From Escherichia phage slur16, in sequence record NC_028248.1: a stretch of 64,000 nt of DNA, one strand, 5' to 3'. The notes under the pieces were generated by a model. The model was not told the origin of the DNA, made no database searches, and was given only the letters and a program-made list of their open reading frames with translations. The first letter of the stretch is position 1. Every line of letters starts with the position of its first letter. Positions 1 to 31,876 of the stretch are shown here, piece after piece. Both the position numbers and the translations under genes were made by a program.

Positions 1-2615
1 AACAAGTCAGTGGTGGCCTTGTTGGTATTGGCAATCAAGGTGTTGAGGTCAGTTTTTGCGGTAGTTATCTTGCCGTCAAGGGTGGTATAGTTTTTAGATA
101 CCGTCGCGTTTGTCTGACTAATCTTTTGATCCAGAGTTTCAGATGTCCTGTTCAAAAGATCCACAGTGGCCTGGTTAGTGCTCAAGATGCTTGCGTCAAG
201 TTCTGTTCTCTGAGTATTGATCTTACCATCCAGAGTTTTATCTCCGGCTAAATACCCGCTCTCAACTCCCTCTATCTGCTCTACCAGCTCACCTTTGGCG
301 GCAACCAATTTCTCATCTAAAGCCTCTGTCTTTTTGTTCAGAAGATCAGTAGTTGCTTTATTGGTTGTCTCAATCAGGGATGCCAATCTTCCACTTTCAG
401 TGTTCAGATCGTTGGTGAACTTGTTCTGTGCAGCAACAAGTTTCCTATCCAGCGCTGTGATATTGCCATTGACATCCTCAAACTTCTGAGTTGTCTCTGT
501 AACTACCGCACCTATTCTGTCTCCAAGTTGCTGGAATGCCTCATCTACCCTACCATCCATGTACCTGTTAAGTTCTGTGACACGATTTTCAACCTCTTCA
601 ATAGAGGAATCCAAAGTGCTCATCAACTCTTTATAAGTTTCTGTCTTTTTGAATTCAGCATCTATCTGAGGCATCAAATCCTCAATAGAGGTGTAGCAGC
701 GTGCAGCGCATTCTACAAACTGAGAACTACCAAAAGCGTTTGTGGTTCGAATATACCAATAATAAACCTTATCGTTCTGCAGACCTTCAGATGTCCAAGT
801 TGAACCAACACCCATACGGGTGGCGTTTGAAGTAACGGTTGCATCACTGGTGTCGGGCAACCTTGTCATACCGGATGTCCAAAAGTCATACTGGGTGCTA
901 ACACTTGCTAAATCCCTACTATGCGGAATCAAGGTGATAGCAAAGTATCCTTGCTTAACCTCTACAGAAACCGGAGCTTCAGGTGCCTGAATGTTAAACT
1001 CACAATACGCTTCTGGAGATACACCACCTTTATAAGATGTTGCAACAACAGTGGCTGTGTAGGAACCTTTAGTCAGACCTTCAACACGGACAAACTGCTC
1101 AACTGTCTGTGCTGTCCAAACAATCTCTCCGTTCTTTCTTACCTGCACAATATTTTGAGCGTAAGTCCCAACGTTGTCCCAGGCCAAAACACCGTGAGTT
1201 ACTTCCCCAGCTTGGAGAACGGAGTATCTGAAGTTTTGCGGCTGAGCTACACCGGACGGGGATATCGGAATATCTACATCGCCGGAATCCGGAAGTTGCC
1301 CTGTGGCATCATTCCACTCTTTAGCATCTTGACGAAGTTTTACCTTGACACCGCCCTTTTTGGTGAACTCCCATTCAAGAACCCTCATTTCTTGGCCCAC
1401 GATACCAATACTTGGGAGGTCCATTGTAACATAACGGCCAGGCTTAAATTTAAAACCTCGCATATTGCAGGTGACTTCAATAATCCTGCCAGCTCTAGCA
1501 CGTCTTAGGAAGATTGCAGAAACACGCTGAGCTTGATAAGGACTGGTAACAAAGCGATAATCTATATCGATTATCTTTCTTTCTCCATCCTTCTCTATCC
1601 ACTCTGGGACAAACACTGATGGAAAATCTGTTTCAGAATACCCTTTGGTCGGGCTAGTGAATCTGCCAGTTATTGTGTTGGATCTTTTGTCAAATGAGGC
1701 TTCCGGATAGATCTTAACCTCACCACAGACACAGTCCTCACTAAGTGTCATTGTTGCTGGGCCATAGTATGCACCAACCAGCAAACCATACTTACCAGCA
1801 ACATAACTAAGATCTGCACCGCAAGCTTTCAGCATTTCTGCCATAATACTTGCTGGGGCCTCATCCATGTCAAACTCACCGTTAATGGTGTAACGGCGCT
1901 CACTGGTTCCGTCTGCGTTTTTTACCGCCTCGTCGCATATGTTGGCAGCCTCCTTGAAGGACTCCCAGTTGATGGTTTCGTCAGGACATTTAAGGTACGT
2001 TCTTAAATAGTCTAGGATCACCAAGGCAGCGTTATTGGTGTACACCTCTTTACTGATACGAGGATCATAGCATTTTTTACCAATCTTGACGAGTGTAACG
2101 TTTGGCAACCCAAAAGGAAACTTGTTAGGGTCAAACCTGAAGCTGGCACGTAGCCAACTGATCCCTCTACCTATCATGTCAGGTGACCATGATGGGCAGT
2201 GTGTACCCATGAAAGGATCAGATGTTTTTCTGTCGTTATGTAGCTCCCACGATACCAGATCTCCATACGAGGAAATAGGATTACCGTCGATAAGTATATC
2301 TTCTATACCTTCCAGAGGGTGATTGGCAAGAACAATAGCACAATGGAGGGTTCTGTCGCTATCCTGCTCCAAAAACGCAAGCAATCCAGATGTGCGTGTC
2401 TTTCCATACACTACAGAGCAAGGTGCAGCAGAAGATCTGAGAAGCTTTTGTCTATCTTGCTGACTTCTGTAAGATTTGTTGCCCTCAAAAATCTTATCCA
2501 AAGTTCTGGTGGTCACAGTGTTCAGGCTGTCAGCCAGAGCTGCCTTGGATGCGTTCCAGTCATAACTTGAAGATCTTGCAGAAGCAACGATGTTATCAAT
2601 CATTGCAATTGGCAT
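1..2615 (-). CDS. Host-specificity / central tail fiber protein, lambda gpJ-like (partial; N-terminal ~870 aa in window, C-terminus beyond position 1)
   Basis: Minus-strand frame is open from ATG (revcomp of cat at 2613-2615, overlapping the stop of the upstream gene) to the window edge; spot-checked codons at 3-59, 900-959, 1440-1499 and 1983-2039 contain no stops. Not in the ORF track because it has no stop in the window. Translation contains GYFAITLIPH...YDFWTS...YYWYIRTTNAFGSSQFVE, which matches my recollection of the lambda J central region; the C-terminal part has tandem TN(K/Q)AT(T/V)DLLN repeats. Confidence 0.55.
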   Translation of the reverse strand, partial: MPIAMIDNIVASARSSSYDWNASKAALADSLNTVTTRTLDKIFEGNKSYRSQQDRQKLLRSSAAPCSVVYGKTRTSGLLAFLEQDSDRTLHCAIVLANHPLEGIEDILIDGNPISSYGDLVSWELHNDRKTSDPFMGTHCPSWSPDMIGRGISWLRASFRFDPNKFPFGLPNVTLVKIGKKCYDPRISKEVYTNNAALVILDYLRTYLKCPDETINWESFKEAANICDEAVKNADGTSERRYTINGEFDMDEAPASIMAEMLKACGADLSYVAGKYGLLVGAYYGPATMTLSEDCVCGEVKIYPEASFDKRSNTITGRFTSPTKGYSETDFPSVFVPEWIEKDGERKIIDIDYRFVTSPYQAQRVSAIFLRRARAGRIIEVTCNMRGFKFKPGRYVTMDLPSIGIVGQEMRVLEWEFTKKGGVKVKLRQDAKEWNDATGQLPDSGDVDIPISPSGVAQPQNFRYSVLQAGEVTHGVLAWDNVGTYAQNIVQVRKNGEIVWTAQTVEQFVRVEGLTKGSYTATVVATSYKGGVSPEAYCEFNIQAPEAPVSVEVKQGYFAITLIPHSRDLASVSTQYDFWTSGMTRLPDTSDATVTSNATRMGVGSTWTSEGLQNDKVYYWYIRTTNAFGSSQFVECAARCYTSIEDLMPQIDAEFKKTETYKELMSTLDSSIEEVENRVTELNRYMDGRVDEAFQQLGDRIGAVVTETTQKFEDVNGNITALDRKLVAAQNKFTNDLNTESGRLASLIETTNKATTDLLNKKTEALDEKLVAAKGELVEQIEGVESGYLAGDKTLDGKINTQRTELDASILSTNQATVDLLNRTSETLDQKISQTNATVSKNYTTLDGKITTAKTDLNTLIANTNKATTDL

Positions 2616-3052
2616 TAATACCTCCAGACATCAACAACGATAGAATCTTTCATGTCGAACATAAAGACCCCTTTATCACCTTTCGCCCAAATCTGGTTGT
2701 TCCAGAACACACCAGCGGTGAGCCCGTTCAGACCTTCGAAAATAACAATATCGCCACGCTGAACCTGTTTAGGAGTATCCAGTCGAGTCATAAAGAGATC
2801 AAAAATAGTAGGCAGGTGTGTAGTTTTGAAACGAAGCATGCACCATCTTTTGCTTTCCAACTCTGTTTTATACGTTCCTTCGAAGTTGGAAAGAAAATCT
2901 GTTCCGTATTGGGCATCAACACACTTAGCCGCAAAGGTGCAACAATCGTGGAATCCCCATTCAAAAGGTATGGTGGCCTCTTCGTCAAACACTTTCCACA
3001 ATCTTTCTTGCCAATCCACTAAACGAGGGTGTGTGCTCATTAAACCTCCCAA
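2615..3052 (-). CDS. Tail tip-associated protein, hypothetical (Cys/His-containing; possible NlpC/P60-like fold, lambda gpK-like position)
   Basis: 145-aa ORF immediately upstream of the J-like gene with a 1-nt stop/start overlap; FHDCCTF motif. Position and weak motif only. Confidence 0.3.
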   Translation of the reverse strand: MGGLMSTHPRLVDWQERLWKVFDEEATIPFEWGFHDCCTFAAKCVDAQYGTDFLSNFEGTYKTELESKRWCMLRFKTTHLPTIFDLFMTRLDTPKQVQRGDIVIFEGLNGLTAGVFWNNQIWAKGDKGVFMFDMKDSIVVDVWRY

Positions 3053-3606
3053 ATGATCGGGCGGCTCGCCACCTGATCCACATATTTAAAAAATCTGTCA
3101 TTATCGTTTCTTGAGCTGTGGCTTTCCTCCGTGTACCGATAAGGAAAACCTCTTAACCAACTGTTGAAGATGGAAGAGATGGATATGGACAGAGCACTGT
3201 TCTCACCTGTCTGAATAGCCATATCTGTTATAAGGCCGTCAAACAAGCCATTAGTTGTAACAGGCAGACCATTCTCCATAGCGGTAATATACAACGTGGC
3301 ACGACAACCAGAATACTCCGTCTTCAGTAGATCACCAACATACTTAGGATCAAACCCGTTCAATGTTGCTACCACAGATCCGAAGTTGGTGGCATCTTTC
3401 TCAGACACAGCAGTTAATGTTGCTGATCCACCTATCCCTATAAAATGTTGCCCCTCAATTACTACAACACCAGTGCCTGAGCACACCCTGACAGTTCCTG
3501 TCGGTAGCTCCAGCTTTGCAGCAATTAAGATCTCAACACCATCAAGCTCCAGCTTTTCAAGAAATAAATTATCTAATGGCGCTCTGATCATCTTAGAAAT
3601 CCTCAA
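3040..3606 (-). CDS. Hypothetical tail assembly/tail tip protein
   Basis: 188-aa ORF, co-oriented and overlapping its neighbours in the tail tip cluster. Confidence 0.3.
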   Translation of the reverse strand: MRISKMIRAPLDNLFLEKLELDGVEILIAAKLELPTGTVRVCSGTGVVVIEGQHFIGIGGSATLTAVSEKDATNFGSVVATLNGFDPKYVGDLLKTEYSGCRATLYITAMENGLPVTTNGLFDGLITDMAIQTGENSALSISISSIFNSWLRGFPYRYTEESHSSRNDNDRFFKYVDQVASRPIIWEV

Positions 3607-4183
3607 AGAAGTTGATAACTATATTATCACCTTTTTGCATAGCATCGACTTTTTGCTTAATTTTATAAATATCTCTGATATGAAACCTACCCTTCGGGGA
3701 TTGAGTTATTATCTTCATAGTGTCCCCTGCGGCAATAGGTTTTCTAAGTCTTGGAGATATGCTTATAACAGCAGACCCAACACCATCGCTACGCACTGGA
3801 GCTGTTACCACTTTCAATTCATCATTGACAGATATTTTATCCCCAGCTCTAGCTATATCCCTGTTCGGCTCCCAACCAACCGTCTTCAAAAAATCGTCGT
3901 TACCAGTAGGCCCAAGGGCGATTGGCTCATTAGCTGTAACTGAGTGACCGTAAGTTTTAATAAGAAAGATGTTTCCATCTTTATACACCTGATCAACAAA
4001 GCTCTTAAGCTCTAGCAACTGTGACTCGCTGATATTGGAAACCGTCAAAGTGCCTTTCCAGTTAGGTGTGGCATAGGTTACTTTTTGCGTTTTACCTGTA
4101 AACGGACTTTTAAACGTAACAATATCTGCCAGCAGCTCCAATCTAATATCTGGAAGGTATCTAGGCCTTTCCCATAAAAACAT
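3593..4183 (-). CDS. Hypothetical tail protein
   Basis: 196-aa ORF, first gene after the terminator at 4244-4275; no recognizable motif. Confidence 0.3.
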   Translation of the reverse strand: MFLWERPRYLPDIRLELLADIVTFKSPFTGKTQKVTYATPNWKGTLTVSNISESQLLELKSFVDQVYKDGNIFLIKTYGHSVTANEPIALGPTGNDDFLKTVGWEPNRDIARAGDKISVNDELKVVTAPVRSDGVGSAVISISPRLRKPIAAGDTMKIITQSPKGRFHIRDIYKIKQKVDAMQKGDNIVINFFEDF

Positions 4184-4243: not shown

Positions 4244-4275
4244 TACAAACAAAAAGCCCCCGCCGAAGCGAGGGC
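4244..4275 (-). terminator. Rho-independent terminator downstream of the long tail fiber gene
   Basis: Minus-strand hairpin GCCCUCGC-UUCG-GCGGGGGC (plus 4256-4275) followed by UUUUUGUUUG. Confidence 0.6.
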
Positions 4276-4282
4276 AGAACAG

Positions 4283-7200
4283 TTACTTCAGTTTCTCTTG
4301 CAATCCAGTAACAACCTCTGTCAATTTTTTAACCTGCTCCTCAAGGGCGGTTATTTTATCGTCCTGTTCCCTGCAAACCTGGACAAGCAAGCCTGTTACA
4401 GCTGCGTAGTCAACGTTATAGAACCTTTCCTCGGTCATCAGAGGAATACCGTCTTGAGTAGGACCTTCTATTTCCTTCCTTTTCACGAAAGATCCTACTG
4501 CCTCTGGCAATGCTTCCATAACCTCTTGAGCAATCACGCCTGCATAAGGCATACCATTCTCTTTCAAGGTGTAGGTATAGCCTTTCATCTTTCTAATTGC
4601 TTCCAGAGCGTTAGGTATGACCTCTATATTATCCTTCAGGTCTCTATCGGAACTTTGGCTAACAGTGGTACATTCTACCGTGCCGTTGACAGCAAAATAT
4701 CTTGATTTAGCCTCATCTGTCTTAGCTCCGCAGTGGAATACCCAGCTGGCGGCTGTTGAGTTATCACTTATCTGAAACTCAAGCACATTCTTCCTATCAG
4801 CGCCATTACCCCAATAGTACAACCTGCCTGTATTAGAAGGCATGTTCGAAGTGTTGGTAACATCAGCACCACCACCTGTGTGTATTGTGAACTCAGGTTC
4901 AAGATTGGACCCTTGAGTTTTTAAAGTGATACCCTTACCGCCAAGCTGCTGCCAATGGCCCCATGTGAAAACACCACCTATCGTTGTTCCATAACGCAGG
5001 AATTTTTCTCCAAGATATGTTGTATATTCCTGTACGCAACTCTCTGGAACGTTGGCATAGTTTCTATAGACAAGGAGAGTACCTGCCTGAGAGCATGGGT
5101 AGTTTCTATCAAGTGCGGCTTGAGCATTGGTCTCCTGATGATAAAAACCCTCTCTATCTCCTTTGTAGTCGTTAAGGTCATTAGTTCCCAACCCTTGACC
5201 ACGGTGCTGAATAACTTTGTTCCACGCTCTGTGGTTTCCCTGCTCTATGGAACGAGTGTACAGCTGGTCTAAACGACCTGCCATCTGGAAAGCGTAGTTT
5301 CCAGAAAAACCAACCGACAACCCTGCTACAACCATGGAACCTTCAGGTCCGTTGACGTTACCAGCCATTATTTTAGAAGGGTTGTTATTCCCGAACTGGT
5401 TGTTCCAGTCTGCACCTGTGTGGCATACAAAACCACCAGGAGCTGAGAAAGTGCCATCTTTGTTGAAGTTGTAGAATCTGTGAGCAGAACCTACAACATC
5501 ACGAACAATAACTTGACCAGCCTCTGGAGTAGATCTGAACTCTGCCTGACCTTTGAGACCAGCACCATTACCGCATTTAGAGGTAAACGTACCGTTAGTC
5601 AGATCCTCTGTCCCATCTGATGCACACTGGAAGCCTGCATTAGAGAATAACGCCTTTCTAGGACTGCCGTAGCACAAATAGTCAAGACCGTCTGCCCATA
5701 GCTCGACTTTTGGCATATTCATTTTGCTCATCACAGCATAGCGTTCAGCAGTGCCTATATAGTGCCACTGTGTGCCGCCACCAGTGTAGAACCCTGAAGT
5801 ACCTTTGAAGTCAACAATAGGTCTGGTATTGGTGTTATTATCTCCAAGAATAGCAAGATTCAAATCTGCTGACTGAAGAGGTGCAACGAACTTAACCCCA
5901 TCCTGATTGTCTGTTACAGCCCCAACCTGGTAATCTTGCTCTCTGGTAAACACTTCGACAACATTTCTACTTGCGTATATGCTGACAGGGAAAGCACGAG
6001 CCTCCACATAGAAAGCAACATACTCTTGTTTACCCCTTGTTGGAGCAATCATCCCAAGAAGTGCTTTTTCATTCTGGTAGAAATTTACTACCCCGTAGAA
6101 AGAGTCTCCCCTGTCCGTCCAGCCGCCAGTTCTATAGTGACACTGCAGGGTGGCACAGTTCATAGGGTCATTTCCAGATGAAGACCTGGTGACTATAGTA
6201 ATATCTGTACCTGTCGAAGGGGCGTAATACGGATCTGTTCTAACGATGATTGGGTAGTATTTCCCATCTTCCATCCCTGCGGTTCTTGGTAGTGTTAAGA
6301 AGTCTTTTACACCTGCTGCTATAGGAACTTTGAACAGATTCTGAGCATCTGCTAAAGTTGTAGCCCCGGTGCCACCTGCGGCTTGAGGTAGAGGTTCCCA
6401 CTTGGCCTTCCGGTTGTTATAAACACCCCATTCCAGAGTGCCGTTACCGGATTCGTCCATCCCACCATCCCAGATAACCATCTTGGCGGCTTTCTTGGAC
6501 CCCCAGAAGCCTCTTTCTGCTCCTGAACTACGAATCCACTCTCCAAGTCCCCAGTTTGTCAGCTGACCAGTAAGATCCCCAACCTGCATGTATTTAGGGC
6601 AGTCTAACACGCCGTCTTCGCGGAAACCTAAATATCTATGGGTTTCAGATCCTTTTGCACCTTTGTGCAGGTGGATTGTCAACCAAGCCTTATTGTCGTT
6701 TCTTACCTCAGAGTAGATCCTATATCCATGCTCAAGGACACCGTCAGCGCTGTATTTGTCCCCGTTAACAATACCTGATGCTGACTTAACATCAGCAGAA
6801 CTTTGAGACAGGTAAAGGTGCCCGAAGGTAGGGGAGTTTCTAGACCCGAGACCGATGTGCGATCTAAAGGTATCATCGTTACGAGGTCTGACCATTGGCT
6901 GCCATGCAGTCCACTGGTTTGTGTTGGCCTGATAGGTTCTCAAATACCAAACATCCACGTTAGAGAATGGATAGTATTCCTGACGACAACCTGTACCGCC
7001 GTTAGCATTGTTCTGCCAAACAATCAAGTGACCAGCACCAGAACCTGCAGGGTAACCATTTGCCTCAGTTGCATAAGCAGTCATCGGCTGGTAGTATACA
7101 CCATCCTGATTACCAGTCAAGTTATTGATATTGAAATTTGGCTCAAGGGCTGCACGTTGCTTATAGAAAGCCCCGATATTGATACGGACTCCAGCGGCAT

Positions 7201-8083
7201 CTCTGGCCCCCGTACCGCCTTGCTCTATAGCAAGAGGTTGCCACGAGGCTGTTTGTTGGTTCCACATGCCCCAACGGCCTGTTGCGTCAAGCTGCAAGTA
7301 CCCTGCCGTGTTTAAATCATCTCCAGCACGGATAACTGTTCTTGTTGGGTTGTTTGCCTCCAGGCGTTTAAATTCATCACGAAGTGCTATTCTTTTTGTT
7401 GTTGCTACACCGTTGGTTACTGCGATGGTATACATGGCTCCGGATGTAGCGCCACGGAAAATACCATCAACAGTTGTAGTATCACGACGAGATACCACAC
7501 CGTTCAGAAATTTTTCACCAGCTGCTACAGAAGGGTAGTTGGTGGTTCTTCCCTCTTCAATAACTGCAGGACCCACAAAGTTATCAAGGTGAATAACATC
7601 ACCTACAGTGTGCACCGTACCAAAATCTACACGCTGTGCAAGTGCTTTAGCATCGTTAGCTGTCTGAACAGTAACATCCATTACATCCTGGACAGACTGC
7701 CCTTCGGCTGTCATGATCATAGATGCGCCAATGGTAGATTCCAGCTCCTCCCTTAGGGACGGGTCAGTATATACCATCCATGCAGCGTCAGTAATCCCAC
7801 CATCGGAGTACGGTGAAGATAGTGCAGGAACAGTGTGTGGAAATTCGCCTTTCCAACGCAGGTAGAGATCTTCCTCTTCGAAATAGGCAAAATCCATTGG
7901 GCCGTTTAACTTACCACCTTCCTTAAAGGAGATTACATGAGAAACAGTCCCATCCACATGGACAACATCGCCAATTTTTACACGACGGGTCAGGTCTGGT
8001 TGTTGAACAACCAGGTAATCATCCTCTGTCACTGCGGTAGTGGCAGGAAGAGATTCAATTCTGACAACTTTAATATCAGCCAT
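4283..8083 (-). CDS. Long tail fiber protein with C-terminal intramolecular chaperone (peptidase S74-like) domain
   Basis: 1266-aa ORF. C-terminus SDRDLKDNIEVIPNALEAIRKMKGYTYTLKENG...ERFYNVDYAAVTGLLVQ plus terminal coiled coil matches the autoproteolytic chaperone domain of endosialidase / T5 L-shaped fiber type. N-terminal ~100 aa are paralogous to the 222-aa protein at 10718-11386. RBS AGGAG precedes the ATG. Confidence 0.75.
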   Translation of the reverse strand: MADIKVVRIESLPATTAVTEDDYLVVQQPDLTRRVKIGDVVHVDGTVSHVISFKEGGKLNGPMDFAYFEEEDLYLRWKGEFPHTVPALSSPYSDGGITDAAWMVYTDPSLREELESTIGASMIMTAEGQSVQDVMDVTVQTANDAKALAQRVDFGTVHTVGDVIHLDNFVGPAVIEEGRTTNYPSVAAGEKFLNGVVSRRDTTTVDGIFRGATSGAMYTIAVTNGVATTKRIALRDEFKRLEANNPTRTVIRAGDDLNTAGYLQLDATGRWGMWNQQTASWQPLAIEQGGTGARDAAGVRINIGAFYKQRAALEPNFNINNLTGNQDGVYYQPMTAYATEANGYPAGSGAGHLIVWQNNANGGTGCRQEYYPFSNVDVWYLRTYQANTNQWTAWQPMVRPRNDDTFRSHIGLGSRNSPTFGHLYLSQSSADVKSASGIVNGDKYSADGVLEHGYRIYSEVRNDNKAWLTIHLHKGAKGSETHRYLGFREDGVLDCPKYMQVGDLTGQLTNWGLGEWIRSSGAERGFWGSKKAAKMVIWDGGMDESGNGTLEWGVYNNRKAKWEPLPQAAGGTGATTLADAQNLFKVPIAAGVKDFLTLPRTAGMEDGKYYPIIVRTDPYYAPSTGTDITIVTRSSSGNDPMNCATLQCHYRTGGWTDRGDSFYGVVNFYQNEKALLGMIAPTRGKQEYVAFYVEARAFPVSIYASRNVVEVFTREQDYQVGAVTDNQDGVKFVAPLQSADLNLAILGDNNTNTRPIVDFKGTSGFYTGGGTQWHYIGTAERYAVMSKMNMPKVELWADGLDYLCYGSPRKALFSNAGFQCASDGTEDLTNGTFTSKCGNGAGLKGQAEFRSTPEAGQVIVRDVVGSAHRFYNFNKDGTFSAPGGFVCHTGADWNNQFGNNNPSKIMAGNVNGPEGSMVVAGLSVGFSGNYAFQMAGRLDQLYTRSIEQGNHRAWNKVIQHRGQGLGTNDLNDYKGDREGFYHQETNAQAALDRNYPCSQAGTLLVYRNYANVPESCVQEYTTYLGEKFLRYGTTIGGVFTWGHWQQLGGKGITLKTQGSNLEPEFTIHTGGGADVTNTSNMPSNTGRLYYWGNGADRKNVLEFQISDNSTAASWVFHCGAKTDEAKSRYFAVNGTVECTTVSQSSDRDLKDNIEVIPNALEAIRKMKGYTYTLKENGMPYAGVIAQEVMEALPEAVGSFVKRKEIEGPTQDGIPLMTEERFYNVDYAAVTGLLVQVCREQDDKITALEEQVKKLTEVVTGLQEKLK

Positions 8084-8118
8084 TCTTTCTCCTGAAAGGG
8101 GGCAAACAGCCCCCTATG

Positions 8119-10716
8119 TTAAAGGTACAATCCACGGTATTGAGCATAAAGGCCCAGACCGCGAAGGATTTCGCCAGAGTGATAGCCCACCGGATCAGAA
8201 ACTGCCCAGCAGCCGTTTAAAACATTATCCCCATTGATGAAGTGGTGCTTTTGCAGTAGCTTCATACAGGCTTCTACAACAATGTCTATTTGAGGTATTG
8301 TCTCTGAATACCCGCACAGACCTAGCCAGCAGCAACCTGCAAGCCATTCACCTACCACCCACATCCTGTCCCCCCTGTCTTGATAAGAATATCCCCCAGA
8401 GGTGTTAAAGTCTGTAGGCAGATTTCCTGAATGAGATGACTGGAATCTGTTGAGGAACCATGCCCATTTCTGGCAGAACAGGAATAATCTTTCATCAACA
8501 GGTTCTTTATGTTTCTTGAGCTCATAGATTGTGCGGCACGCAGCAACAAAAGATCTTGACTGGAGCTTAGAGTTATCTACCATCTCCCACCAACCAGTCA
8601 GCCCTTCATTACCTCTCTGCCATACATAACGCGAGGCAACTGGACCCTCTGTCTTAAATGTATTATTATACCAGACTTGAGCGTCATACAGAAAGCCTAT
8701 TGTATTTGACAATCTATGGCGATCTATGTTTTCTGCACCCATGCAGTATACTGCTGGGTATTGCATGCCAGGGTAGGGCCAATTTGGCTTTTCCTCTAAG
8801 AGATAGTTTTCCTTATCTATCACCTTTCCGGCAGGGAACACACCTGGTGTGTGCCTGTATGCACCTTGCTTGTAGTTTCTGACATAGCAATCACCAACCT
8901 TAGCGGTTGATTCTGTCTTGCTTGCCATCCATACGCTAAACCATATTAGATAAGCATCCCTATCTGCAATATAGAACTGCGGCAGCGTGTTTACGCAGTA
9001 CAGATCAAACAAGCCATTACCTATCTGCCTGTCGCTTAGGCTGAAATCTACAGAGGTGAGCCCCTTAGGATTAGCAAAGAAAGGTTTAATCTCTTCTTCG
9101 GTGTGATGAGGTTGTGTCGGATCTAGTTTGAAATCTCCTAGAGTAAGAGTTTCTGTTATCCATTGTCCATTAGTGGCATATAGATCAGCATACCATAACC
9201 ACCTATCTTTGTCAAGAAATTTGACCCTTACCATCTCATCATCTGATCGATAAGTTACTGAGTTTAAAGAAATCTCTCTCCCAAAATTGAAAGTTACTTT
9301 ACCTCTTGCTATATTACAACGGGTGAAGTTGTCAGAGTGGTTGTAAATGTCGGTATCATACTGCATACTAACACTAGCGCCACCGCTTACGACAATGTTT
9401 TCCTCTTTAGGTAAGAGATACGGATTACCGTCTTTACCAACTACCTCTACGAAATCAGTAACCTTGGCAACTATTTCTGTTACCTCTGCCCCTCCAAAAG
9501 GAACCCCTATCCTGTACTGTTTTTTGTTATTGTTGCCATCATTAAGGATGAAATGTGGCTGGAACAGAACCCCTTCTCCTCCGAAATTCATAACAATTTC
9601 AGCATCTCTGCCTATTTTGTATGTAGTCCCTTTTTGAATTATTTCGCAAGGCTGGCGTGCGTTCATTCTAAAATTGATATACCCGTCACTGTCCCTGCTC
9701 ATGGCAGGAACTGTTCCTGCAACAAGGCAAGTACCATCTGTAAACGGTGCCTTAATCAACGTGGTCTTCCTAAACAGTTTGTCGTAGGCGTTTATATCAC
9801 TGAAATTAAGCAATTTGTTGTAAGACTGTTTAAACGCGGTGTAATACTTTTCCTCACCTGTCAAGGTGTAGAGTTGATAACAAGCGTCACACCACATTTC
9901 TTCCCCGTCCAACTCTGGGGCCTGATTATCTGCAACCACGTTTATAGGATTTACAATTACAGGGGATCCTGCAGGTATCACCGATCCGCCCTGCTCTTGA
10001 GGTAATCTTACACAATAGGTCACCTTGTGGCTGCCTGTAACACCCTTATCTTGTAATTGGATTGTGCCGAACTCTACAGACGTATGACCACTGTCGGCTA
10101 TGCTACCGTTAGCCCAATAGCGGTTACCATCCCATGCTATGTACCACTCAACCCACCAACTTAATCCGGATGTTGTCCAATCTGGGTTAGCATCTGTGCC
10201 ACCGTAAACATCAGAGTCTACAGTGTTTCTTCCTAACACACCGTTATACGCTTGGAATGCCTTGTCAAGGTATTCTCCCCATGTCGGAGATCCAGCTGGG
10301 ATTTTTCCTCTACCGTTGGTAAAAGACACCACCACATCTTTAAACCCACCATGTGATGGAACCCCATCTGTGGATAGGGGGTAGTGGGACAATCTTTGCA
10401 TTTTACTTTCTACTGCATATGCACCCAGAAGATGGCTATTGTAAGCTTCCCAAGCATCTTTTGCCCTACCCAGATAGAAATCGCTTTTCGATGCCCTGTA
10501 TGCTTCAATGTATCCCAGAATCAACACAGCTTGGGACTCATGCATTGCCCAATCATTATTTATCTTATTACCTGCCCACCCTGCAGCTATAAGACCATCA
10601 GGGTTTACTAGCTTATTTTGTGTAGGGGTGTTGGTAATACCTGTGTTGTTATCGAGGCACTTCCTGTGCCCCTCAATCATCTGAAATACGTTATCAATGT
10701 TATGTTGAATACGCAT
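8119..10716 (-). CDS. Large tail-associated protein, putative tailspike / receptor-binding protein (possible carbohydrate-active domain)
   Basis: 865-aa ORF between the two fiber genes; Trp/Tyr/Gly-rich, no anchor domain. Enzymatic function is a guess. Confidence 0.4.
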   Translation of the reverse strand: MRIQHNIDNVFQMIEGHRKCLDNNTGITNTPTQNKLVNPDGLIAAGWAGNKINNDWAMHESQAVLILGYIEAYRASKSDFYLGRAKDAWEAYNSHLLGAYAVESKMQRLSHYPLSTDGVPSHGGFKDVVVSFTNGRGKIPAGSPTWGEYLDKAFQAYNGVLGRNTVDSDVYGGTDANPDWTTSGLSWWVEWYIAWDGNRYWANGSIADSGHTSVEFGTIQLQDKGVTGSHKVTYCVRLPQEQGGSVIPAGSPVIVNPINVVADNQAPELDGEEMWCDACYQLYTLTGEEKYYTAFKQSYNKLLNFSDINAYDKLFRKTTLIKAPFTDGTCLVAGTVPAMSRDSDGYINFRMNARQPCEIIQKGTTYKIGRDAEIVMNFGGEGVLFQPHFILNDGNNNKKQYRIGVPFGGAEVTEIVAKVTDFVEVVGKDGNPYLLPKEENIVVSGGASVSMQYDTDIYNHSDNFTRCNIARGKVTFNFGREISLNSVTYRSDDEMVRVKFLDKDRWLWYADLYATNGQWITETLTLGDFKLDPTQPHHTEEEIKPFFANPKGLTSVDFSLSDRQIGNGLFDLYCVNTLPQFYIADRDAYLIWFSVWMASKTESTAKVGDCYVRNYKQGAYRHTPGVFPAGKVIDKENYLLEEKPNWPYPGMQYPAVYCMGAENIDRHRLSNTIGFLYDAQVWYNNTFKTEGPVASRYVWQRGNEGLTGWWEMVDNSKLQSRSFVAACRTIYELKKHKEPVDERLFLFCQKWAWFLNRFQSSHSGNLPTDFNTSGGYSYQDRGDRMWVVGEWLAGCCWLGLCGYSETIPQIDIVVEACMKLLQKHHFINGDNVLNGCWAVSDPVGYHSGEILRGLGLYAQYRGLYL

Positions 10717-10717
10717 C

Positions 10718-11386
10718 TTAGATAGCTCCTGCGATAATCAGTGCCCCGTACCAAGTTAACCCGTTGTCGTAGGTTTCCAACTTGAAAATATCTGTTGCAC
10801 CAGCTGTAAATGTTAGGATAGGATCTCTTCCGTAGGACCATTTAACATTACCAGGCCAATAGACTTTGTTGCCGCCAGAGGTCTGAGTAATGCATACGGT
10901 TATAGTTCTCGCCACTCCTTCAAGACCTTCTGTTTGATTTTCAAAAGAGATTGTGGTATTTGAAGTTAGTCGAACCTTAAAGGTATCCGCAACTTCAAGA
11001 TCCATATCAAGCTGACCACCGATAGATCCGTAATCAACTATTCTGCCAGAAGAAGTTGCAGCAAGCTCACCAAAAACAGACCAGGCATTTGCAGACACAC
11101 CCCCAGCACCCTCTACAGTGGAGTCTGGGAGGATTATTTTAGGATAATCCCCGTTCCACGTGTAGTAGCGCTTAGTTTCTGGGTCATAAGCAAAGTCCTT
11201 CTTGCTCTTAAGATAACCACCCTCTGTGAAATAGACTATCTTAGTAATGCTAAGATCGTTGACAACATCGTCAATCTTAGCCTTTCTTGTCCCATCAGTC
11301 TGGTTGACAACCAAGAAGTCATCACTCAAGACTGTTTCTGCATCTTCAAGATCTGGAATTGGTATTGTAGGATAAGCTACAGCCAT
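10718..11386 (-). CDS. Short fiber / adaptor protein carrying a tail fiber N-terminal anchor domain
   Basis: 222-aa ORF. DDFLVVNQTDGTRKAKIDDVV...FTEGGYLKSKKDFAY...ANAWSVF aligns with DDYLVVQQPDLTRRVKIGDVV...FKEGGKLNGPMDFAY...DAAWMVY at the N-terminus of the 1266-aa fiber. Confidence 0.5.
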   Translation of the reverse strand: MAVAYPTIPIPDLEDAETVLSDDFLVVNQTDGTRKAKIDDVVNDLSITKIVYFTEGGYLKSKKDFAYDPETKRYYTWNGDYPKIILPDSTVEGAGGVSANAWSVFGELAATSSGRIVDYGSIGGQLDMDLEVADTFKVRLTSNTTISFENQTEGLEGVARTITVCITQTSGGNKVYWPGNVKWSYGRDPILTFTAGATDIFKLETYDNGLTWYGALIIAGAI

Positions 11387-11395
11387 GATTTCTCC

Positions 11396-12112
11396 TTAGT
11401 TAACATCAATAGCACGACCAGACTGGTTGGCAATAGCCTCATCATTGGAGGTAGCAATAACACCAGAGTATTCGCGCTCATCTGGAGCAAGCGTCCAGGT
11501 ATTGCGGTTAATGGTTTGTTCTGCCTCAGTCATCAGCAGATCTTTATCCTGAGTCAACAGAGAGCCTACAGGGATCGGGTTTTCCATCTCAGGGCCAGCA
11601 TACTGGTTCCACCATGTGGCATCTCCTGTTCTAGGCAATCTGAAGTTGATCAGATAGTACAGTTTATTAGCCCACTTAATCCAACCCTCATCATCACAGA
11701 GAGAGGTTGTCCCAGAATCAGGCTGTGGGTAGGTGAACTGATCAAGACCTACGAAAGCCAGCCTTACAATCTCGTTCTCTTTGGTAACAACCTCGAAGAA
11801 CGCTTGGTATGTTCTCGATCTTCGGTCCATGGTAGACTGGAAGTTTATGATGTTTAGCACATCCGGCTCTTGTCTTGCCACTTCCATGATCTTGTTATCA
11901 AGAACAGTCTTCATGACCTTCTTGCTGAGAAAGTCCATATAAGGGAAGCCAAACAGCTCGTCAAAGTACCAGCTCCCCTTCCACGTATTAAACCTCATCC
12001 ACAAGCGCTGGCGCAGACTTACCTGGTTTGAATCTATCAACTCAAGACCTTTGTCTATCGCCAAATCGCCTGTCTGTGGGTCCATCAATATATCACTATA
12101 AAGCGTAGCCAT
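11396..12112 (-). CDS. Baseplate protein, hypothetical
   Basis: 238-aa ORF in the baseplate cluster downstream of the tape measure gene; position only. Confidence 0.3.
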   Translation of the reverse strand: MATLYSDILMDPQTGDLAIDKGLELIDSNQVSLRQRLWMRFNTWKGSWYFDELFGFPYMDFLSKKVMKTVLDNKIMEVARQEPDVLNIINFQSTMDRRSRTYQAFFEVVTKENEIVRLAFVGLDQFTYPQPDSGTTSLCDDEGWIKWANKLYYLINFRLPRTGDATWWNQYAGPEMENPIPVGSLLTQDKDLLMTEAEQTINRNTWTLAPDEREYSGVIATSNDEAIANQSGRAIDVN

Positions 12113-12124
12113 GAAAGCCCTCTA

Positions 12125-12802
12125 TTAGTGCGGTCCACTTGTCTCGCCATCAGGGCAAGAGTGGGTATGACCTTTATATTCTGCATAGAATGAATCCAAA
12201 TCCACGCCAGCAGCAGTTATAATTCTACCAGATGGGTCTATTGTAGCACCATTCATTCTGATATTCCCATCCACAGCAGCTCGCAAATTGGCAGCCCCGT
12301 TAGTGAAAGAAAACTCCCCGCTGCTGTCGCACCGTAATGTCCCACCAGGTGTTTGAAGCTCAAAATCGCCAGAAGGTGTCAGTTTAAAATAAACCCTATC
12401 ATTCCATAACTCTACGTTATCAGGATCGATCTGTAAGGCGTTTGAGTCTGAATGAACAGAGGTGATTGCCCACCCCGGAAACAGGCCGTGAGTTTGTTGA
12501 TCGTCGTTATTGTTTTCATTTCTCTCTGAAAACTGCAATCCTACAACATCTCCAGCCTTAATAGGGAGTGTTAACCTTGCCTTTCCGCTGTTTGCAGACA
12601 TCACCTGAATTGGAACGTCATAGATAAGAGGGTATCTCTCCACATCTCCGTCATCAAACGTAGTTTCAGCTATTGGCTGCACGGCTGCAGAAGGTATACT
12701 GTAGTCTACACTGACAACTCTGGCCCTGATACTGGTGTGGTAGTCCCTCATTATTTTTTCTATAAAAGATCTTACAGCAGCATCTTTCCTATTTATTGCC
12801 AT
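12125..12802 (-). CDS. Baseplate central spike-like protein (gpV-like), hypothetical
   Basis: 225-aa ORF; C-terminal GHTHSCPDG resembles metal-binding spike apex motifs; position in baseplate cluster. Confidence 0.35.
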   Translation of the reverse strand: MAINRKDAAVRSFIEKIMRDYHTSIRARVVSVDYSIPSAAVQPIAETTFDDGDVERYPLIYDVPIQVMSANSGKARLTLPIKAGDVVGLQFSERNENNNDDQQTHGLFPGWAITSVHSDSNALQIDPDNVELWNDRVYFKLTPSGDFELQTPGGTLRCDSSGEFSFTNGAANLRAAVDGNIRMNGATIDPSGRIITAAGVDLDSFYAEYKGHTHSCPDGETSGPH

Positions 12803-15189: not shown

Positions 15190-17526
15190 TTACCAAAGAT
15201 CTGTTGACATAAAGTTAATATCTTTGTTATTCTCCCACTCAAGTTTTGCATCAAGTATTTTGCTAAACTCACCCTCATCTATTGAAATCGTGATTTTCCC
15301 ATCACTAATCTCTAAAGGTAGCATTTCCATAGTTCTTAATTGAGAAGCAAAACCAGGGCCACCTGGCAACGGAAGAGTACCGCCCGGTAAGGTGTCCAAA
15401 GGATTAACAAATCCGTTACCTCCCGATATGATATCTTTGCGAATCATATCGCTGATAGTATCCAGCTGCTGATTTCTTTCACTTAGTGGGTTGTAACGGT
15501 CATTAAATAATTCCCCGGCGCTTAGTATTGTACCGATAATACCCAGCTTACCGAGCAGACCAACTTTGCCACCAGGTGTCTTGAGGCCACCTCCCCCTTT
15601 TCCTGCCGGAGCGCCACCACCAGATCCTTCTGTAGTAGCGGCACCTGCTACTCCAGCTGCACCCCTTAGAGAGCTAAGGAATTTAAAGGTTTTTACAAGC
15701 ATAGATGCCATGACAAAACCTTTTGTTAGGGCGTTGACGACCAGCATGATGGCAGCAGCAAACCCTGCCCATTTAGCATAGCTAAAGGTGTCATGGAGCT
15801 CTTCAGAATATTCCTTCGTCTTAGCTGTTATGAACCCCCATTTAATCCCCCATTCAAGGAAAAACATGCGGATCTTGACTATAGTGTTGTTCAGTTCACC
15901 AACTACCCAGTTAAGGCCTCTCACAAACCCGCTAACAAAATCACCAGAGGCATCCCACACAAATTGCAGAGTCTCACCAGTGCGGATTAGTGTATAATAG
16001 AACTCTGTTAGTTCGTCAGACCAACGGGTGAACAGTTTCTGACGAGTCAGTTCGATAAAGGTTTTCAGTCTGTTTTCTGCCAGCACGTTAGACTTCTGCA
16101 TTCTTTCATAACCAGCTGCAGATGCCTCGTTCATGTACTTAGCCACATACTTCATGATCTTGGCTGTTTTAACCTCACCTTTCTTCATCATGTCCATGAA
16201 CTGATCCATGGAGAGTTCAGAAAGACCAAAAGCCTCTTTGGTGGCCTTGATAAAAGGTTCGTATGCACCAGGCAATGCTTCAGCAAGTTGTTGCTTCAGT
16301 TCTTCGGACATTACCTGTCCTTTCCCGAGCATCTGTTGGATTGCCATAATACCGCGCTGGTATTTTACCTCATCGGCACCATAAGCAGCAGCATACTGGG
16401 AGTATGCAGAAAACAGCTCATGCACTTCCTGATTTGTCATCTGGTTTTTGGCGTTTACCGACATCTGGGCGTAACCTTGAAGACCAGATTTGAGATCAAA
16501 ACCAAGACGCATAGCCTCTTGCTGGACAAACGCAACCTCACTGTTGGCTTTGTTTGGATCTCCAGTAACAGCAGTAAGAGCAGCACTTGCCCCCTCCATC
16601 ATGTGACCGGATCTGTTAACCGCAGCAAATCCAGAAAAAGCTGTATACGCAGCTGTTGCATTAATAACAGATCTACGTAAGTCTCTCATGGCATCGCCTA
16701 GTGTAAGCGTTTGGCTGGTGGCGCTTTTAAACCCAGACTGCAGCGCTGACAGGTGGGCGTTAAAGGTTGACTTCTTCATCTCCCCGCGAGCAAACCTGGA
16801 CTCTAACTCTGAGTATCCTGGCAAGCTTCCACGGAATCCGGCCCCATACTTGGCAGAAAGTCTTATCGCGGAGTTGTAGAGGTGGGTTCTCCTTGCCTCA
16901 CGATCCGACATAAGCCTATTATCCATACCAGCTTTACTGTCTCTTCTTAGCTGTCTATGATAACGATTCATAGCGGCTGTCTGAGCTTTCACAAGGTTAG
17001 GGTCGGAAGCCACACCACCCATATTAGGGTTACCGGGGATATATTTGAAAGATTTGGCATTAGCCAAAACTCTTGCCTTAGGTGCCTTATAACCACCGTA
17101 AGACACTGGTGCAGATTTGGCAGCCTTTTTGGCCTCTTTAGCTTGCTGCTGGTAGAACTTACGCATCCTAGCCATTTCTGGATTTTTAGCGGTAAGATTA
17201 CCTACAGCTTGTTTACGTCTCGCATTCTCCCTACGTTCTATTGCAGCCCTTACTGCAGCCTCTTTCTTGGCCTGTGCTACGCTCTCTCTGTGCAGTTTAG
17301 CATTTGCCTGAGATTGCTGTCTGGCAACCCTCTGCATTGTCTGCTGGGTTTTAACAGCTACCGCCTGCCATCTACTCATTGGGTTGGCTGAGTTAAAATC
17401 CTCGCCCAGTTTCCTGAACTCCCTCCCAATACTGCGAATTTTCTCTACAGCTTTTTTGTAGGAGGAGTTCTCTATCTCAAAGCCAATCTTGTTGACTGTT
17501 GTGGCAACTATTTTGTTTGTAGCCAT
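15190..17526 (-). CDS. Tail tape measure protein
   Basis: 778-aa ORF; Ala/Gln/Lys-rich helical N-terminal half, Gly-rich segment (GAAGVAGAATTEGSGGGAPAGKGGGG) and hydrophobic stretch; follows sheath-tube-chaperone genes. Confidence 0.7.
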   Translation of the reverse strand: MATNKIVATTVNKIGFEIENSSYKKAVEKIRSIGREFRKLGEDFNSANPMSRWQAVAVKTQQTMQRVARQQSQANAKLHRESVAQAKKEAAVRAAIERRENARRKQAVGNLTAKNPEMARMRKFYQQQAKEAKKAAKSAPVSYGGYKAPKARVLANAKSFKYIPGNPNMGGVASDPNLVKAQTAAMNRYHRQLRRDSKAGMDNRLMSDREARRTHLYNSAIRLSAKYGAGFRGSLPGYSELESRFARGEMKKSTFNAHLSALQSGFKSATSQTLTLGDAMRDLRRSVINATAAYTAFSGFAAVNRSGHMMEGASAALTAVTGDPNKANSEVAFVQQEAMRLGFDLKSGLQGYAQMSVNAKNQMTNQEVHELFSAYSQYAAAYGADEVKYQRGIMAIQQMLGKGQVMSEELKQQLAEALPGAYEPFIKATKEAFGLSELSMDQFMDMMKKGEVKTAKIMKYVAKYMNEASAAGYERMQKSNVLAENRLKTFIELTRQKLFTRWSDELTEFYYTLIRTGETLQFVWDASGDFVSGFVRGLNWVVGELNNTIVKIRMFFLEWGIKWGFITAKTKEYSEELHDTFSYAKWAGFAAAIMLVVNALTKGFVMASMLVKTFKFLSSLRGAAGVAGAATTEGSGGGAPAGKGGGGLKTPGGKVGLLGKLGIIGTILSAGELFNDRYNPLSERNQQLDTISDMIRKDIISGGNGFVNPLDTLPGGTLPLPGGPGFASQLRTMEMLPLEISDGKITISIDEGEFSKILDAKLEWENNKDINFMSTDLW

Positions 17527-31062: not shown

Positions 31063-31139
31063 TGGTCTCCACGGAGTGATTCGAACACTCGACCTCCTGA
31101 TCCCAAATCAGGCGCTCTACCAAGCTGAGCTACGCGGAG
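31063..31139 (-). tRNA. tRNA-Pro (anticodon UGG)
   Basis: Folded by hand: acceptor CUCCGCG/CGUGGAG with C1:G72, anticodon stem CCUGA/UCAGG, loop UUUGGGA with G37, T-loop UUCGAAU, encoded CCA. Confidence 0.85.
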
Positions 31140-31150
31140 TATTTATTATT

Positions 31151-31225
31151 TGGTGGCCCTGGGTGGAATTGAACCACCGTCTGGCGATTATGAGTCGCTT
31201 GCTTGAACCTTCCAGCTACAGGGCC
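31151..31225 (-). tRNA. tRNA-Met (anticodon CAU; elongator type, tRNA-Ile2 not excluded)
   Basis: Acceptor GGCCCUG/CAGGGCC, anticodon loop CUCAUAA, T-arm GGUGG-UUCAAUU-CCACC, encoded CCA; G1:C72 argues against initiator. Confidence 0.8.
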
Positions 31226-31226
31226 A

Positions 31227-31302
31227 TGGTGCTGATGGCAGGACTTGAACCTGCAACCTATTGATTACAAATCAATTGCACTACCAATTGTGCTACATCA
31301 GC
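31227..31302 (-). tRNA. tRNA-Thr (anticodon UGU)
   Basis: 76-nt cloverleaf: acceptor GCUGAUG/CAUCAGC, D-stem GCAC/GUGC, anticodon stem AUUGA/UCAAU with loop UUUGUAA, T-arm GCAGG-UUCAAGU-CCUGC, CCA. Confidence 0.85.
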
Positions 31303-31308
31303 AAAAAA

Positions 31309-31407
31309 GGTGCTAGGTGATGGAATCGAACCACCTATGTATTCAACGACTACCTCGTCTATTTTCAGGATTAAAAATCCTCGCCCTTGCCAAAGGGCTT
31401 ACCTAGC
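31309..31407 (-). tRNA. Aberrant tRNA-like element (99 nt; possible tRNA-Lys UUU derivative with ~26 extra nt)
   Basis: Perfect 7-bp acceptor pairing GCUAGGU/ACCUAGC, D-arm GCCC-UUUGGCAA-GGGC, T-arm GGUGG-UUCGAUU-CCAUC, 3' end ...ACC followed by UUUUUU (no encoded CCA). The anticodon position is a palindromic hairpin AGGAUU-UUU-AAUCCU (alternatively a 4-bp stem with UUUUUAA loop, anticodon UUU), and ~30 nt lie between it and the T-arm. Confidence 0.35.
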
Positions 31408-31505
31408 TCAGTATGTTGACCATGTTGCTAGTCGGCGATGACGACTGTAACATTTGATAATCCGGTTCTGCTTCCGGCTTTCGCTTAATTACAAGGTCAA
31501 CAATA

Positions 31506-31596
31506 TGGCTGAGGGTAATGGAATCGAACCATCATCGAGTCATCCTCAACGGGACGGTTTTCAAGACCGCTTGAGCACCATTGCTCCCTACCCTCA
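31506..31596 (-). tRNA. tRNA-Ser (anticodon UGA)
   Basis: Type II tRNA: acceptor UGAGGGU/ACCCUCA, anticodon arm GCGGU-CUUGAAA-ACCGU, long variable arm (UUGAG-GAUGA-CUCGA), T-arm GAUGG-UUCGAUU-CCAUU, CCA. Confidence 0.8.
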
Positions 31597-31710
31597 TTTA
31601 TAAACAATACTGATAATGACACTGATTTTCGAGCAGTTAGTGACTAGTATAAACGACGATAAATATCAATGCCATTATCTGTATGATTTATGCATTTAAA
31701 ACTATAAATT

Positions 31711-31797
31711 TGGTGGGGAGTGGTGGAGTCGAACCACCCGAGTCGTAATGACAATAGATTTACAGTCTACACCGCTACCTCTACGGGATAACTCCCC
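31711..31797 (-). tRNA. tRNA-Tyr (anticodon GUA)
   Basis: Acceptor GGGGAGU/ACUCCCC, anticodon arm GUAGA-CUGUAAA-UCUAU, long variable arm, T-arm GGUGG-UUCGACU-CCACC, CCA. Confidence 0.8.
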
Positions 31798-31801
31798 AAT
31801 T

Positions 31802-31876
31802 TGGCACCCCGTACTGGACTCGAACCAGTGTCAACGGCTTAGAAGGCCGCTGCTTTATCCACTAAGCTAACAGGGC
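31802..31876 (-). tRNA. tRNA-Arg (anticodon UCU)
   Basis: Acceptor GCCCUGU/ACGGGGU (G-U wobbles), D-stem GCUU/AAGC, anticodon arm GCGGC-CUUCUAA-GCCGU, T-arm CUGG-UUCGAGU-CCAG, CCA. Confidence 0.8.

Follow-up and report, generated by a model that had tools for sequence, protein, structure and literature searches.

Escherichia phage slur16 (NC_028248.1) probably carries an 865-amino-acid (aa) enzyme on its baseplate by means of a 222-aa adaptor, and its 1266-aa long tail fiber would use an anchor of the same type. We hold this reading with moderate confidence from the analysis of a 64,000-nucleotide (nt) stretch of the phage DNA (hereafter, the window). The 222-, 865-, and 1266-aa proteins are orthologs of gp43, gp42, and gp41 of phage rV5 and are referred to by these names; the rV5 numbers were obtained via cross-references in the PVP-SE1 record. 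A role as an adaptor for gp42 is the most likely one for gp43, since proteins with its C-terminal domain are encoded directly before gp42-like genes in most loci and since, in P2-like prophages, the enzyme is fused to the baseplate wedge protein gpI. The three open reading frames (ORFs) lie where an initial annotation of the window had placed them, all on the minus strand:

10718-11386, minus: 222-aa protein (gp43); ortholog of PVP-SE1 gp51, with phi92 gp140 as the short form
11252-11386, minus: N-pep, residues 1-45 of gp43, PT[IV].[IV]SDL...D..V.DQ.D.T[RK]K; proposed docking element
11063-11251, minus: Tail_spike_N (PF18668), residues ~46-108 of gp43; Pfam 41 bits
10721-11053, minus: C-terminal beta-sandwich domain (C-domain), residues 112-222 of gp43; gp42-associated subfamily, proposed gp42 platform
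8119-10716, minus: 865-aa protein (gp42); ortholog of PVP-SE1 gp50 and phi92 gp141
4283-8083, minus: 1266-aa long tail fiber (gp41); positional equivalent of phi92 endosialidase gp143 and of PVP-SE1 gp49
7769-8083, minus: N-terminal module of gp41, N-pep 1-44 plus Tail_spike_N 45-105; paralogous to the gp43 copy
4286-4651, minus: C-terminal intramolecular chaperone (Peptidase_S74) of gp41, residues ~1145-1266; Pfam 55.4 bits

Most gp42-like genes directly follow a gene for a C-domain protein

No Pfam or PDB sequence match was found for gp42. Its AF2 model (pLDDT 66, from 7 sequences) has helical hairpins at residues 59-95, 269-306, and 654-860, which surround central beta-sandwiches at residues 329-613, and thus points to a globular enzyme, not a trimeric fiber or a beta-helix spike. 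gp42, which lacks the anchor module, is predicted to be glycosidase-like, with an (alpha/alpha)6 barrel into which the beta-sandwiches are inserted centrally, and is a candidate for the (alpha/alpha)6-barrel glycoside hydrolases (GH105/GH88/GH76/GH8-like clans). The gp42-like proteins of the rV5-like phages, PVP-SE1, and phi92 (three related genera) start at the same conserved residues. A lost N-terminal anchor was considered, as phrog_2871 aligns with gp42 only from profile position 114; this was rejected because close homologs have the same start and the extension of the profile comes from fused variants.

The pairing of the two genes extends well beyond rV5-like phages. In BP63 (Rosemountvirus, a 52-kb myovirus) and ECO319P1 (Crifsvirus, a 75-kb podovirus), a small protein ending in the C-domain is directly followed by a full-length homolog of gp42 (BLASTP E=3e-100 and E=1e-108, respectively). 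From IMG/VR, 76 loci with gp42-like proteins were retrieved, on contigs of 4-348 kb, of which 71 have at least 500 nt upstream of the gene. An ORF ending in the C-domain stands directly before the gp42-like gene in 60 of these 71 loci, which include myo-, podo-, and jumbo phages. Likewise, 523 GenBank phage records contain a gp42-like gene vs 534 that match the 222-aa protein, with the same genus breakdown and adjacent coordinates. The small partner proteins range in length from 111 to 449 aa, and each lineage has its own kind of N-terminal part.

Ten of the 11 exceptions are P2-like prophage loci, as judged from locus L040 and a shared upstream ORF pattern. In L040, the gp42-like module is fused to gpI (Pfam Tail_P2_I, E=6e-52), and the gene lies between gpJ and the tail fiber gene. 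This 1097-aa fusion (L040:3458-6751) is found on P2-like prophage contigs of ~19.5 kb, which also include L037, L041-L046, L049, L050, and L052. The remaining exception is a jumbo-phage gp42-like protein with an unrelated 278-aa N-terminal extension. The enzyme therefore has either an anchor in cis or a small C-domain protein encoded before it. The initial annotation had proposed that the 865-aa protein may attach through the short one; the pairing, the matching GenBank records, the gpI fusions, and the anchorless globular fold now lend strong comparative support to this proposal, while the contact itself is one that we infer.

Both partners are known from virions. Mass spectrometry of rV5 virions detected gp43 and gp42, as well as gp41 (PMC3606486), and the two partners in Loughboroughvirus S144 (21 kDa and 111 kDa) are also virion proteins (PMC7432712). 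In Rosemount- and Loughboroughviruses, the pair is encoded outside the baseplate block, with the head-tail connector genes on one side and the sheath gene on the other (BP63, L010 4722-8302; S144, ORF16/ORF17), and mounting on the neck is a possibility in these phages.

The C-domain of gp43

The 222-aa protein matches phrog_7760, annotated as "tail fiber protein" (E=8e-120). Residues 112-222 are modeled confidently as a beta-sandwich (pLDDT ~80), for which the Pfam scan returned no family, despite thousands of members. Indeed, the 222-aa query found 3413 representative proteins (E<=1e-3), and among the matches listed, most fall on the C-domain, at or near the C-terminus of proteins of 110-2036 aa. 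Members of the gp42-associated subfamily share the signature QGTGAN..WP...W..R.PVLSY, which reads TQTSGGNKVYWPGNVKWSYGRDPILTF in gp43. The best fold matches of the C-domain model are residues 1-335 of CBA120 TSP4 (a baseplate anchor plus gp10-like branching domains) and T4-type gp9. Besides TSP4, the listed matches are the T4-type long-fiber proximal subunit and gp9 of phage KP1, a tailspike of Acinetobacter phage Solidus, and the Pa223 capsid spike; the last is also given as a match for phi92 gp140 in PMC13450770. No gp10-like domain was detected in gp43 at the sequence level by the Pfam scan.

gp43 and gp41 share a two-part N-terminal module

The initial annotation had described the first ~100 residues of the 222- and 1266-aa proteins as paralogous and the 865-aa protein as lacking this region, and both observations were borne out. 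BLASTP aligns residues 8-105 of gp43 with residues 7-105 of gp41 (38/99 identical, 38%; 71 bits; E=3e-18), and the similarity is significant, with a Smith-Waterman score of 175 compared with 27.7 +/- 4.9 (maximum 61) in 2000 shuffles (z=30). The motifs that had been quoted are present (DDFLVVNQTDGTRKAKIDDVV / DDYLVVQQPDLTRRVKIGDVV, F.EGG, DFAY, and AW.V[FY]), and gp42 gave no match to the module. Both anchor-bearing proteins contain the TSP1/Gp66 N-terminal domain, Tail_spike_N (PF18668), which is found in gp43 at residues 51-105 (41.0 bits) and in gp41 at residues 46-103 (40.9 bits), with a gathering cut-off of 25. These are the only two copies in the window, as phmmer and hidden Markov model (HMM) scans revealed no third one among all six-frame ORFs. 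The remaining fiber genes of phage WalterGehring (99% identical), which encode a 1279-aa J-like protein, a 690-aa deacetylase, and 581-aa and 1875-aa fibers, do not contain the module either.

Sequence comparisons indicate that the module is composite and not a single unit, comprising N-pep and Tail_spike_N. The alignment with relatives gives a longer consensus for N-pep, PT[IV].[IV]SDL....V...D..V.DQ.D.T[RK]K, and the peptide is conserved in gp43, gp41, PVP-SE1 gp51 and gp49, and phi92 gp140 and gp143 (HMM E 1e-19 to 4e-10, the latter value for gp143, which starts with it). The 157-aa homologs in phi92-like and phAPEC8-like phages (phi92 gp140) have N-pep joined straight to the C-domain: exactly the Tail_spike_N insert is gone, and N-pep is the sole N-terminal part kept. 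PVP-SE1 gp49 starts with the full module; the 2010 GenBank annotation of this phage already noted that gp49 is "similar to rv5_gp043 at N-terminus". The module is also the N-terminal part of metagenomic proteins of 518-1481 aa whose distal parts are unrelated; such pairing of a constant anchor with a receptor-binding part that can be exchanged is a classical pattern (PMC10408124).

It should be noted that phi92 gp151 (L006:9320-11281) lacks N-pep but matches Tail_spike_N close to the N-terminus (HMM E=2e-12); the module halves therefore also occur apart in one genome. Phage phiEt88 and Enterobacter phage vB_Ecl_MII_003 were considered as independent carriers of the anchor and rejected, having only Tail_spike_N in common and not N-pep.

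The AF2 model of the N-terminal half of gp43 (pLDDT <50) supports no statement on its fold. The Tail_spike_N part of the module matches the PDB sequences of Sf11 gp13 (9occ), CBA120 TSP1/3/4, and G7C gp63.1, and in solved systems, N-termini of this type (an N-terminal peptide plus Tail_spike_N) form the end of the tailspike that lies next to the virion or complex. In the Sf11 tail, the residues preceding Tail_spike_N contact the virion (PMC12724387), which is why N-pep is taken here as the putative docking element.

In several unrelated lineages, the N-terminal region of the small protein recurs at the N-terminus of a second fiber-like ORF within +/-4 kb (L053, L055/L074, L062, L064, L065, and the phi92-like L016/L056). 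This recurrence supports the reading of the N-terminus as a lineage-specific virion anchor.

The C-terminal part of gp41

gp41 matches phrog_6578 and, besides Tail_spike_N, contains Peptidase_S74 (PF13884; 55.4 bits at residues 1145-1196, cut-off 22). The positional equivalent in phi92, gp143, likewise ends in a Peptidase_S74 chaperone. Self-cleavage is predicted at Ser1145/Asp1146, in the motif SQSS/DRDLKDNIE (cut between S and D), because this is the endosialidase family and phi92 gp143 is annotated likewise.

Alternative explanations

The alternative that survives best, which we consider unlikely, is that gp43 is a free-standing short fiber whose C-domain binds a host glycan; gp42 would be attached otherwise, and the adjacency of the genes would reflect a common function (bind, then cut). 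Several observations favor it and count against an adaptor. The C-domain is located at the distal C-terminus of many fibers (130-2036 aa), sometimes repeated, and often occurs without gp42, which weakens the idea that it is exclusively a gp42 dock. None of the 174 sampled environmental ORFs ending in the C-domain precedes a gp42-like gene, making the pairing one-directional; these ORFs are relatives of two environmental family members (two single queries), as a diverse C-domain alignment was unusable for the locus search. Furthermore, environmental viral contigs L149/L151 (2711-5780) and L162 have two or three consecutive fiber-like ORFs (~340-360 aa in L149/L151), each ending in the C-domain, and no gp42-like gene. 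Since free C-domains are common, the domain is a general distal fiber domain, with only one subfamily tied to gp42. On the other side, the gp42-adjacent C-domains separate from the sampled "free" ones, forming their own group (nearest-neighbor purity 100%) with the signature given above, in a comparison where the "free" sample is biased to two subfamilies. In addition, gp42-like proteins possess no lineage-specific N-terminus that would fit different virions, yet they are found on myo-, podo-, and jumbo phages, and fusion of the enzyme to a baseplate protein takes the place of the small protein where the latter is absent.

Less probable still is a branched complex resembling that of the Ackermannviridae, in which gp43 would be the baseplate hub and gp41 would dock on gp43, or on gp43-gp42, via Tail_spike_N/N-pep. 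The initial annotation had suggested a modular or branched receptor-binding apparatus, with the two proteins docking to one type of baseplate site. A branched arrangement has precedents that speak for it: in CBA120-type phages, TD1 (Pfam Tail_spike_N) of TSP1/TSP3 binds the gp10-like XD3 of TSP4/TSP2, and some TSP4s are without a receptor-binding domain. The TSP4 and gp9 fold matches of the C-domain point the same way, as does fiber II of phi92, which meets fiber I at its base. However, gp43 bears the same module as gp41 and would then self-polymerize. Phi92-like phages without a gp41/gp143-type fiber still have gp140 and its C-domain, and the conserved genomic partner of the C-domain is gp42, not the proteins that bear N-pep.

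Finally, a recombination relic that implies no common docking is highly improbable: although receptor-binding domains are known to be exchanged at the conserved end of Tail_spike_N, the two copies are only 38% identical at the protein level, without the DNA-level similarity that a recent exchange would leave, and residues 1-45, which lie outside the exchange motif, are the best conserved across Vequintavirinae and Stephanstirmvirinae.

Proposed arrangement of gp43, gp42, and gp41

In the adaptor arrangement that we favor, in which we infer all protein-protein contacts as well as the location of the socket, gp43 would be an adaptor, possibly trimeric, with no receptor-binding domain. Its N-pep and Tail_spike_N would fix it to the baseplate periphery, while its C-terminal beta-sandwich would carry gp42, which seems to have no attachment element of its own. 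As gp41 has the paralogous N-terminal module, we propose that it docks in a socket of the same kind, which most likely lies on the wedge or beside it. With a variable distal part and a chaperone predicted to cleave itself off, gp41 would be an exchangeable receptor-binding fiber.

A broader reading, to which we give almost as much credence as to its negation, is that a C-domain protein and a gp42-like (alpha/alpha)6 glycosidase may form a self-contained, horizontally mobile two-gene plug-in fitted to myovirus baseplates, podovirus tails, jumbo phages, and possibly necks. Only the N-terminal anchor of the adaptor would be swapped, and in P2-like prophages the enzyme would be fused to gpI instead. 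If this were true, phi92 gp140-gp141 would be a concrete candidate for fiber II or the fiber I arm, and the QGTGAN...R.PVLSY subfamily would be a new docking interface, portable enough to be used when enzymes are to be engineered onto the tails of phages.

Genomic setting

Sequence identity places the region in a Vequintavirus, i.e., an rV5-like myovirus. The 7.8 kb around the gene trio are 100% identical to Escherichia phage slur12 and 92-99.7% identical to more than 110 other Vequintavirus records. gp43 itself is 100% identical to its slur12 copy and 98-100% identical to those in other Vequintavirus records, and near-identical sequences (92-100% to 114 Vequintavirus records) assign the three proteins to the rV5 gp43/gp42/gp41 orthologous groups. 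About 20 "Campylobacter phage" records with C. jejuni as host (MG065676, MG065644, MG065677, and others) are 99-100% identical to positions 4283-12112 of the window; the hosts in that data set may have been misattributed, or coliphages may have contaminated it.

The order of the minus-strand genes was assigned from annotated relatives and from Pfam and PHROG scans. Past the sheath initiator, it matches that of WalterGehring and rV5_ev147. The other features of the block are:

15190-17526, minus: tape measure protein
between tape measure and spike, minus: tube initiator, plug, and hub, in that order
12125-12802, minus: spike
11396-12112, minus: sheath initiator
10726-10730, minus: AGGAG ribosome-binding site of the gp42 gene, within the end of the gp43 gene; read from the sequence
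8095-8114, minus: GC-rich hairpin GGGGGC-tgttt-GCCCCC + TTT, between the gp42 and gp41 genes; read from the sequence
4256-4275, minus: strong intrinsic-terminator-like hairpin and T-run, 8-bp stem with 7 GC pairs, tail TTTTTGTTTG

At the gp43-gp42 junction, a single base separates the stop codon TAA (10718-10720) from the ATG (10714-10716), and junctions of this type, tight or overlapping, are also found in phi92, PVP-SE1, BP63, and ECO319P1. A frameshift fusion of the two genes, which are one frame apart with a 1-nt gap, was rejected, given the AGGAG site before the ATG and the presence of separate coupled genes in every relative examined. The hairpin at 8095-8114, after which the AGGAG site of the gp41 gene follows, was not called by the terminator scan because its T-run is short. 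The terminator at 4256-4275 stands directly 3' of the gp41 gene and closes the block that ends in gp43-gp42-gp41.

Directly past this terminator, a siphovirus-style tail-tip set is found in this myovirus (2615-4183 on the minus strand and on beyond 2615; L003:1036-6443). The set is made up of a "distal tail protein" of 196 aa (phrog_1302), a tail protein of 183 aa (phrog_2048), a DUF6950 protein, and a protein of 1279 aa that contains lambda-J Ig domains as well as Phage_Tail_Tip; the gene for this last protein is cut by the window start. Elsewhere in the window, seven tRNA genes (Pro, Met, Thr, Ser, Tyr, Arg) are clustered at 31063-31876 on the minus strand. One call in this cluster (99 nt, 31309-31407) has an anticodon of four bases (atcc) and was left unassigned by ARAGORN. 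Between ~34000 and 38000, the ORFs switch from minus to plus orientation and the sign of the GC skew flips close to 36 kb, which marks divergently transcribed halves of the window.

Comparison with known systems

The rV5-like and phi92-like phages are multivalent, with several co-expressed fibers, and their adsorption apparatus is well known. rV5 gp43/42/41, PVP-SE1 gp51/50/49, and phi92 gp140/141/143 are orthologous and in the same order, within the "Swiss-army-knife" adsorption apparatus of Vequintavirinae and Stephanstirmvirinae; gp140 of the phi92 type differs from gp43 in being without the Tail_spike_N insert. A 2026 cryo-EM paper on phi92 leaves fiber II and the fiber I arm unidentified and does not consider gp141 (PMC13450770). 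In the literature covered, which did not include the phi92 genome and structure study (Schwarzer et al. 2012), where an earlier mention of the gp140/gp143 N-termini is possible, we found no assignment of gp43/gp140 as an adaptor for gp42/gp141 or of either protein to a fiber, no cross-family cassette, and no gpI fusions. The very broad host range of rV5- and phi92-like phages makes them favored candidates for therapy. The adaptor-enzyme pair and the shared anchor provide testable fiber-gene assignments.

The best PDB sequence match of the module is the tailspike gp13 of the Shigella siphophage Sf11, docked on the distal tail protein gp17 (PDB 9occ; E=2.8e-5 and 1e-10). There, residues 4-59 before Tail_spike_N contact the virion, matching the docking proposed for N-pep. 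The Sf11 N-terminus differs in that it is helical, shows no sequence relationship to N-pep, and is partnered by the distal tail protein of a siphovirus.

The branched TSP1-4 tailspike complex of CBA120 and Kuttervirus is similar in that several of its receptor-binding proteins have Tail_spike_N (TD1-type) close to the N-terminus. There is also a resemblance between the gp43 model and the N-terminal region of CBA120 TSP4 (N-terminal anchor plus gp10-like XD domains), and Limestonevirus TSP4 is a hub without a receptor-binding domain, as proposed for gp43. In contrast to CBA120, the cargo here is a globular (alpha/alpha)6 enzyme and not a beta-helix tailspike, and gp43 has the domain order anchor, TD-like, sandwich, with no gp10-like domain in its sequence.

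In podophages K1E, K1-5, SP6, and KP34 and the Kayfunavirus CLB_P1, a small separate adaptor anchors an anchorless enzyme (PMC10408124, PMC13450770). We liken gp43-gp42 to these adaptor-tailspike pairs, with which a PDB sequence search found no homology. Unlike in the podophage adaptors, the cargo-binding part here would be a widespread C-terminal beta-sandwich, and the pair would move among virions of quite different types. The adaptor-enzyme pair and the shared anchor suggest how a glycan-degrading enzyme might be mounted, in portable form, on the tails of unrelated phages; sharing an anchor is in itself textbook phage modularity. The N-terminal similarity was known from the 2010 GenBank annotation, and shared anchors, branching domains, and adaptors are established principles; what is new is the pairing of the C-domain with gp42-like proteins across myo-, podo-, and jumbo phages, together with the gpI fusions, a new instance of a known design principle.
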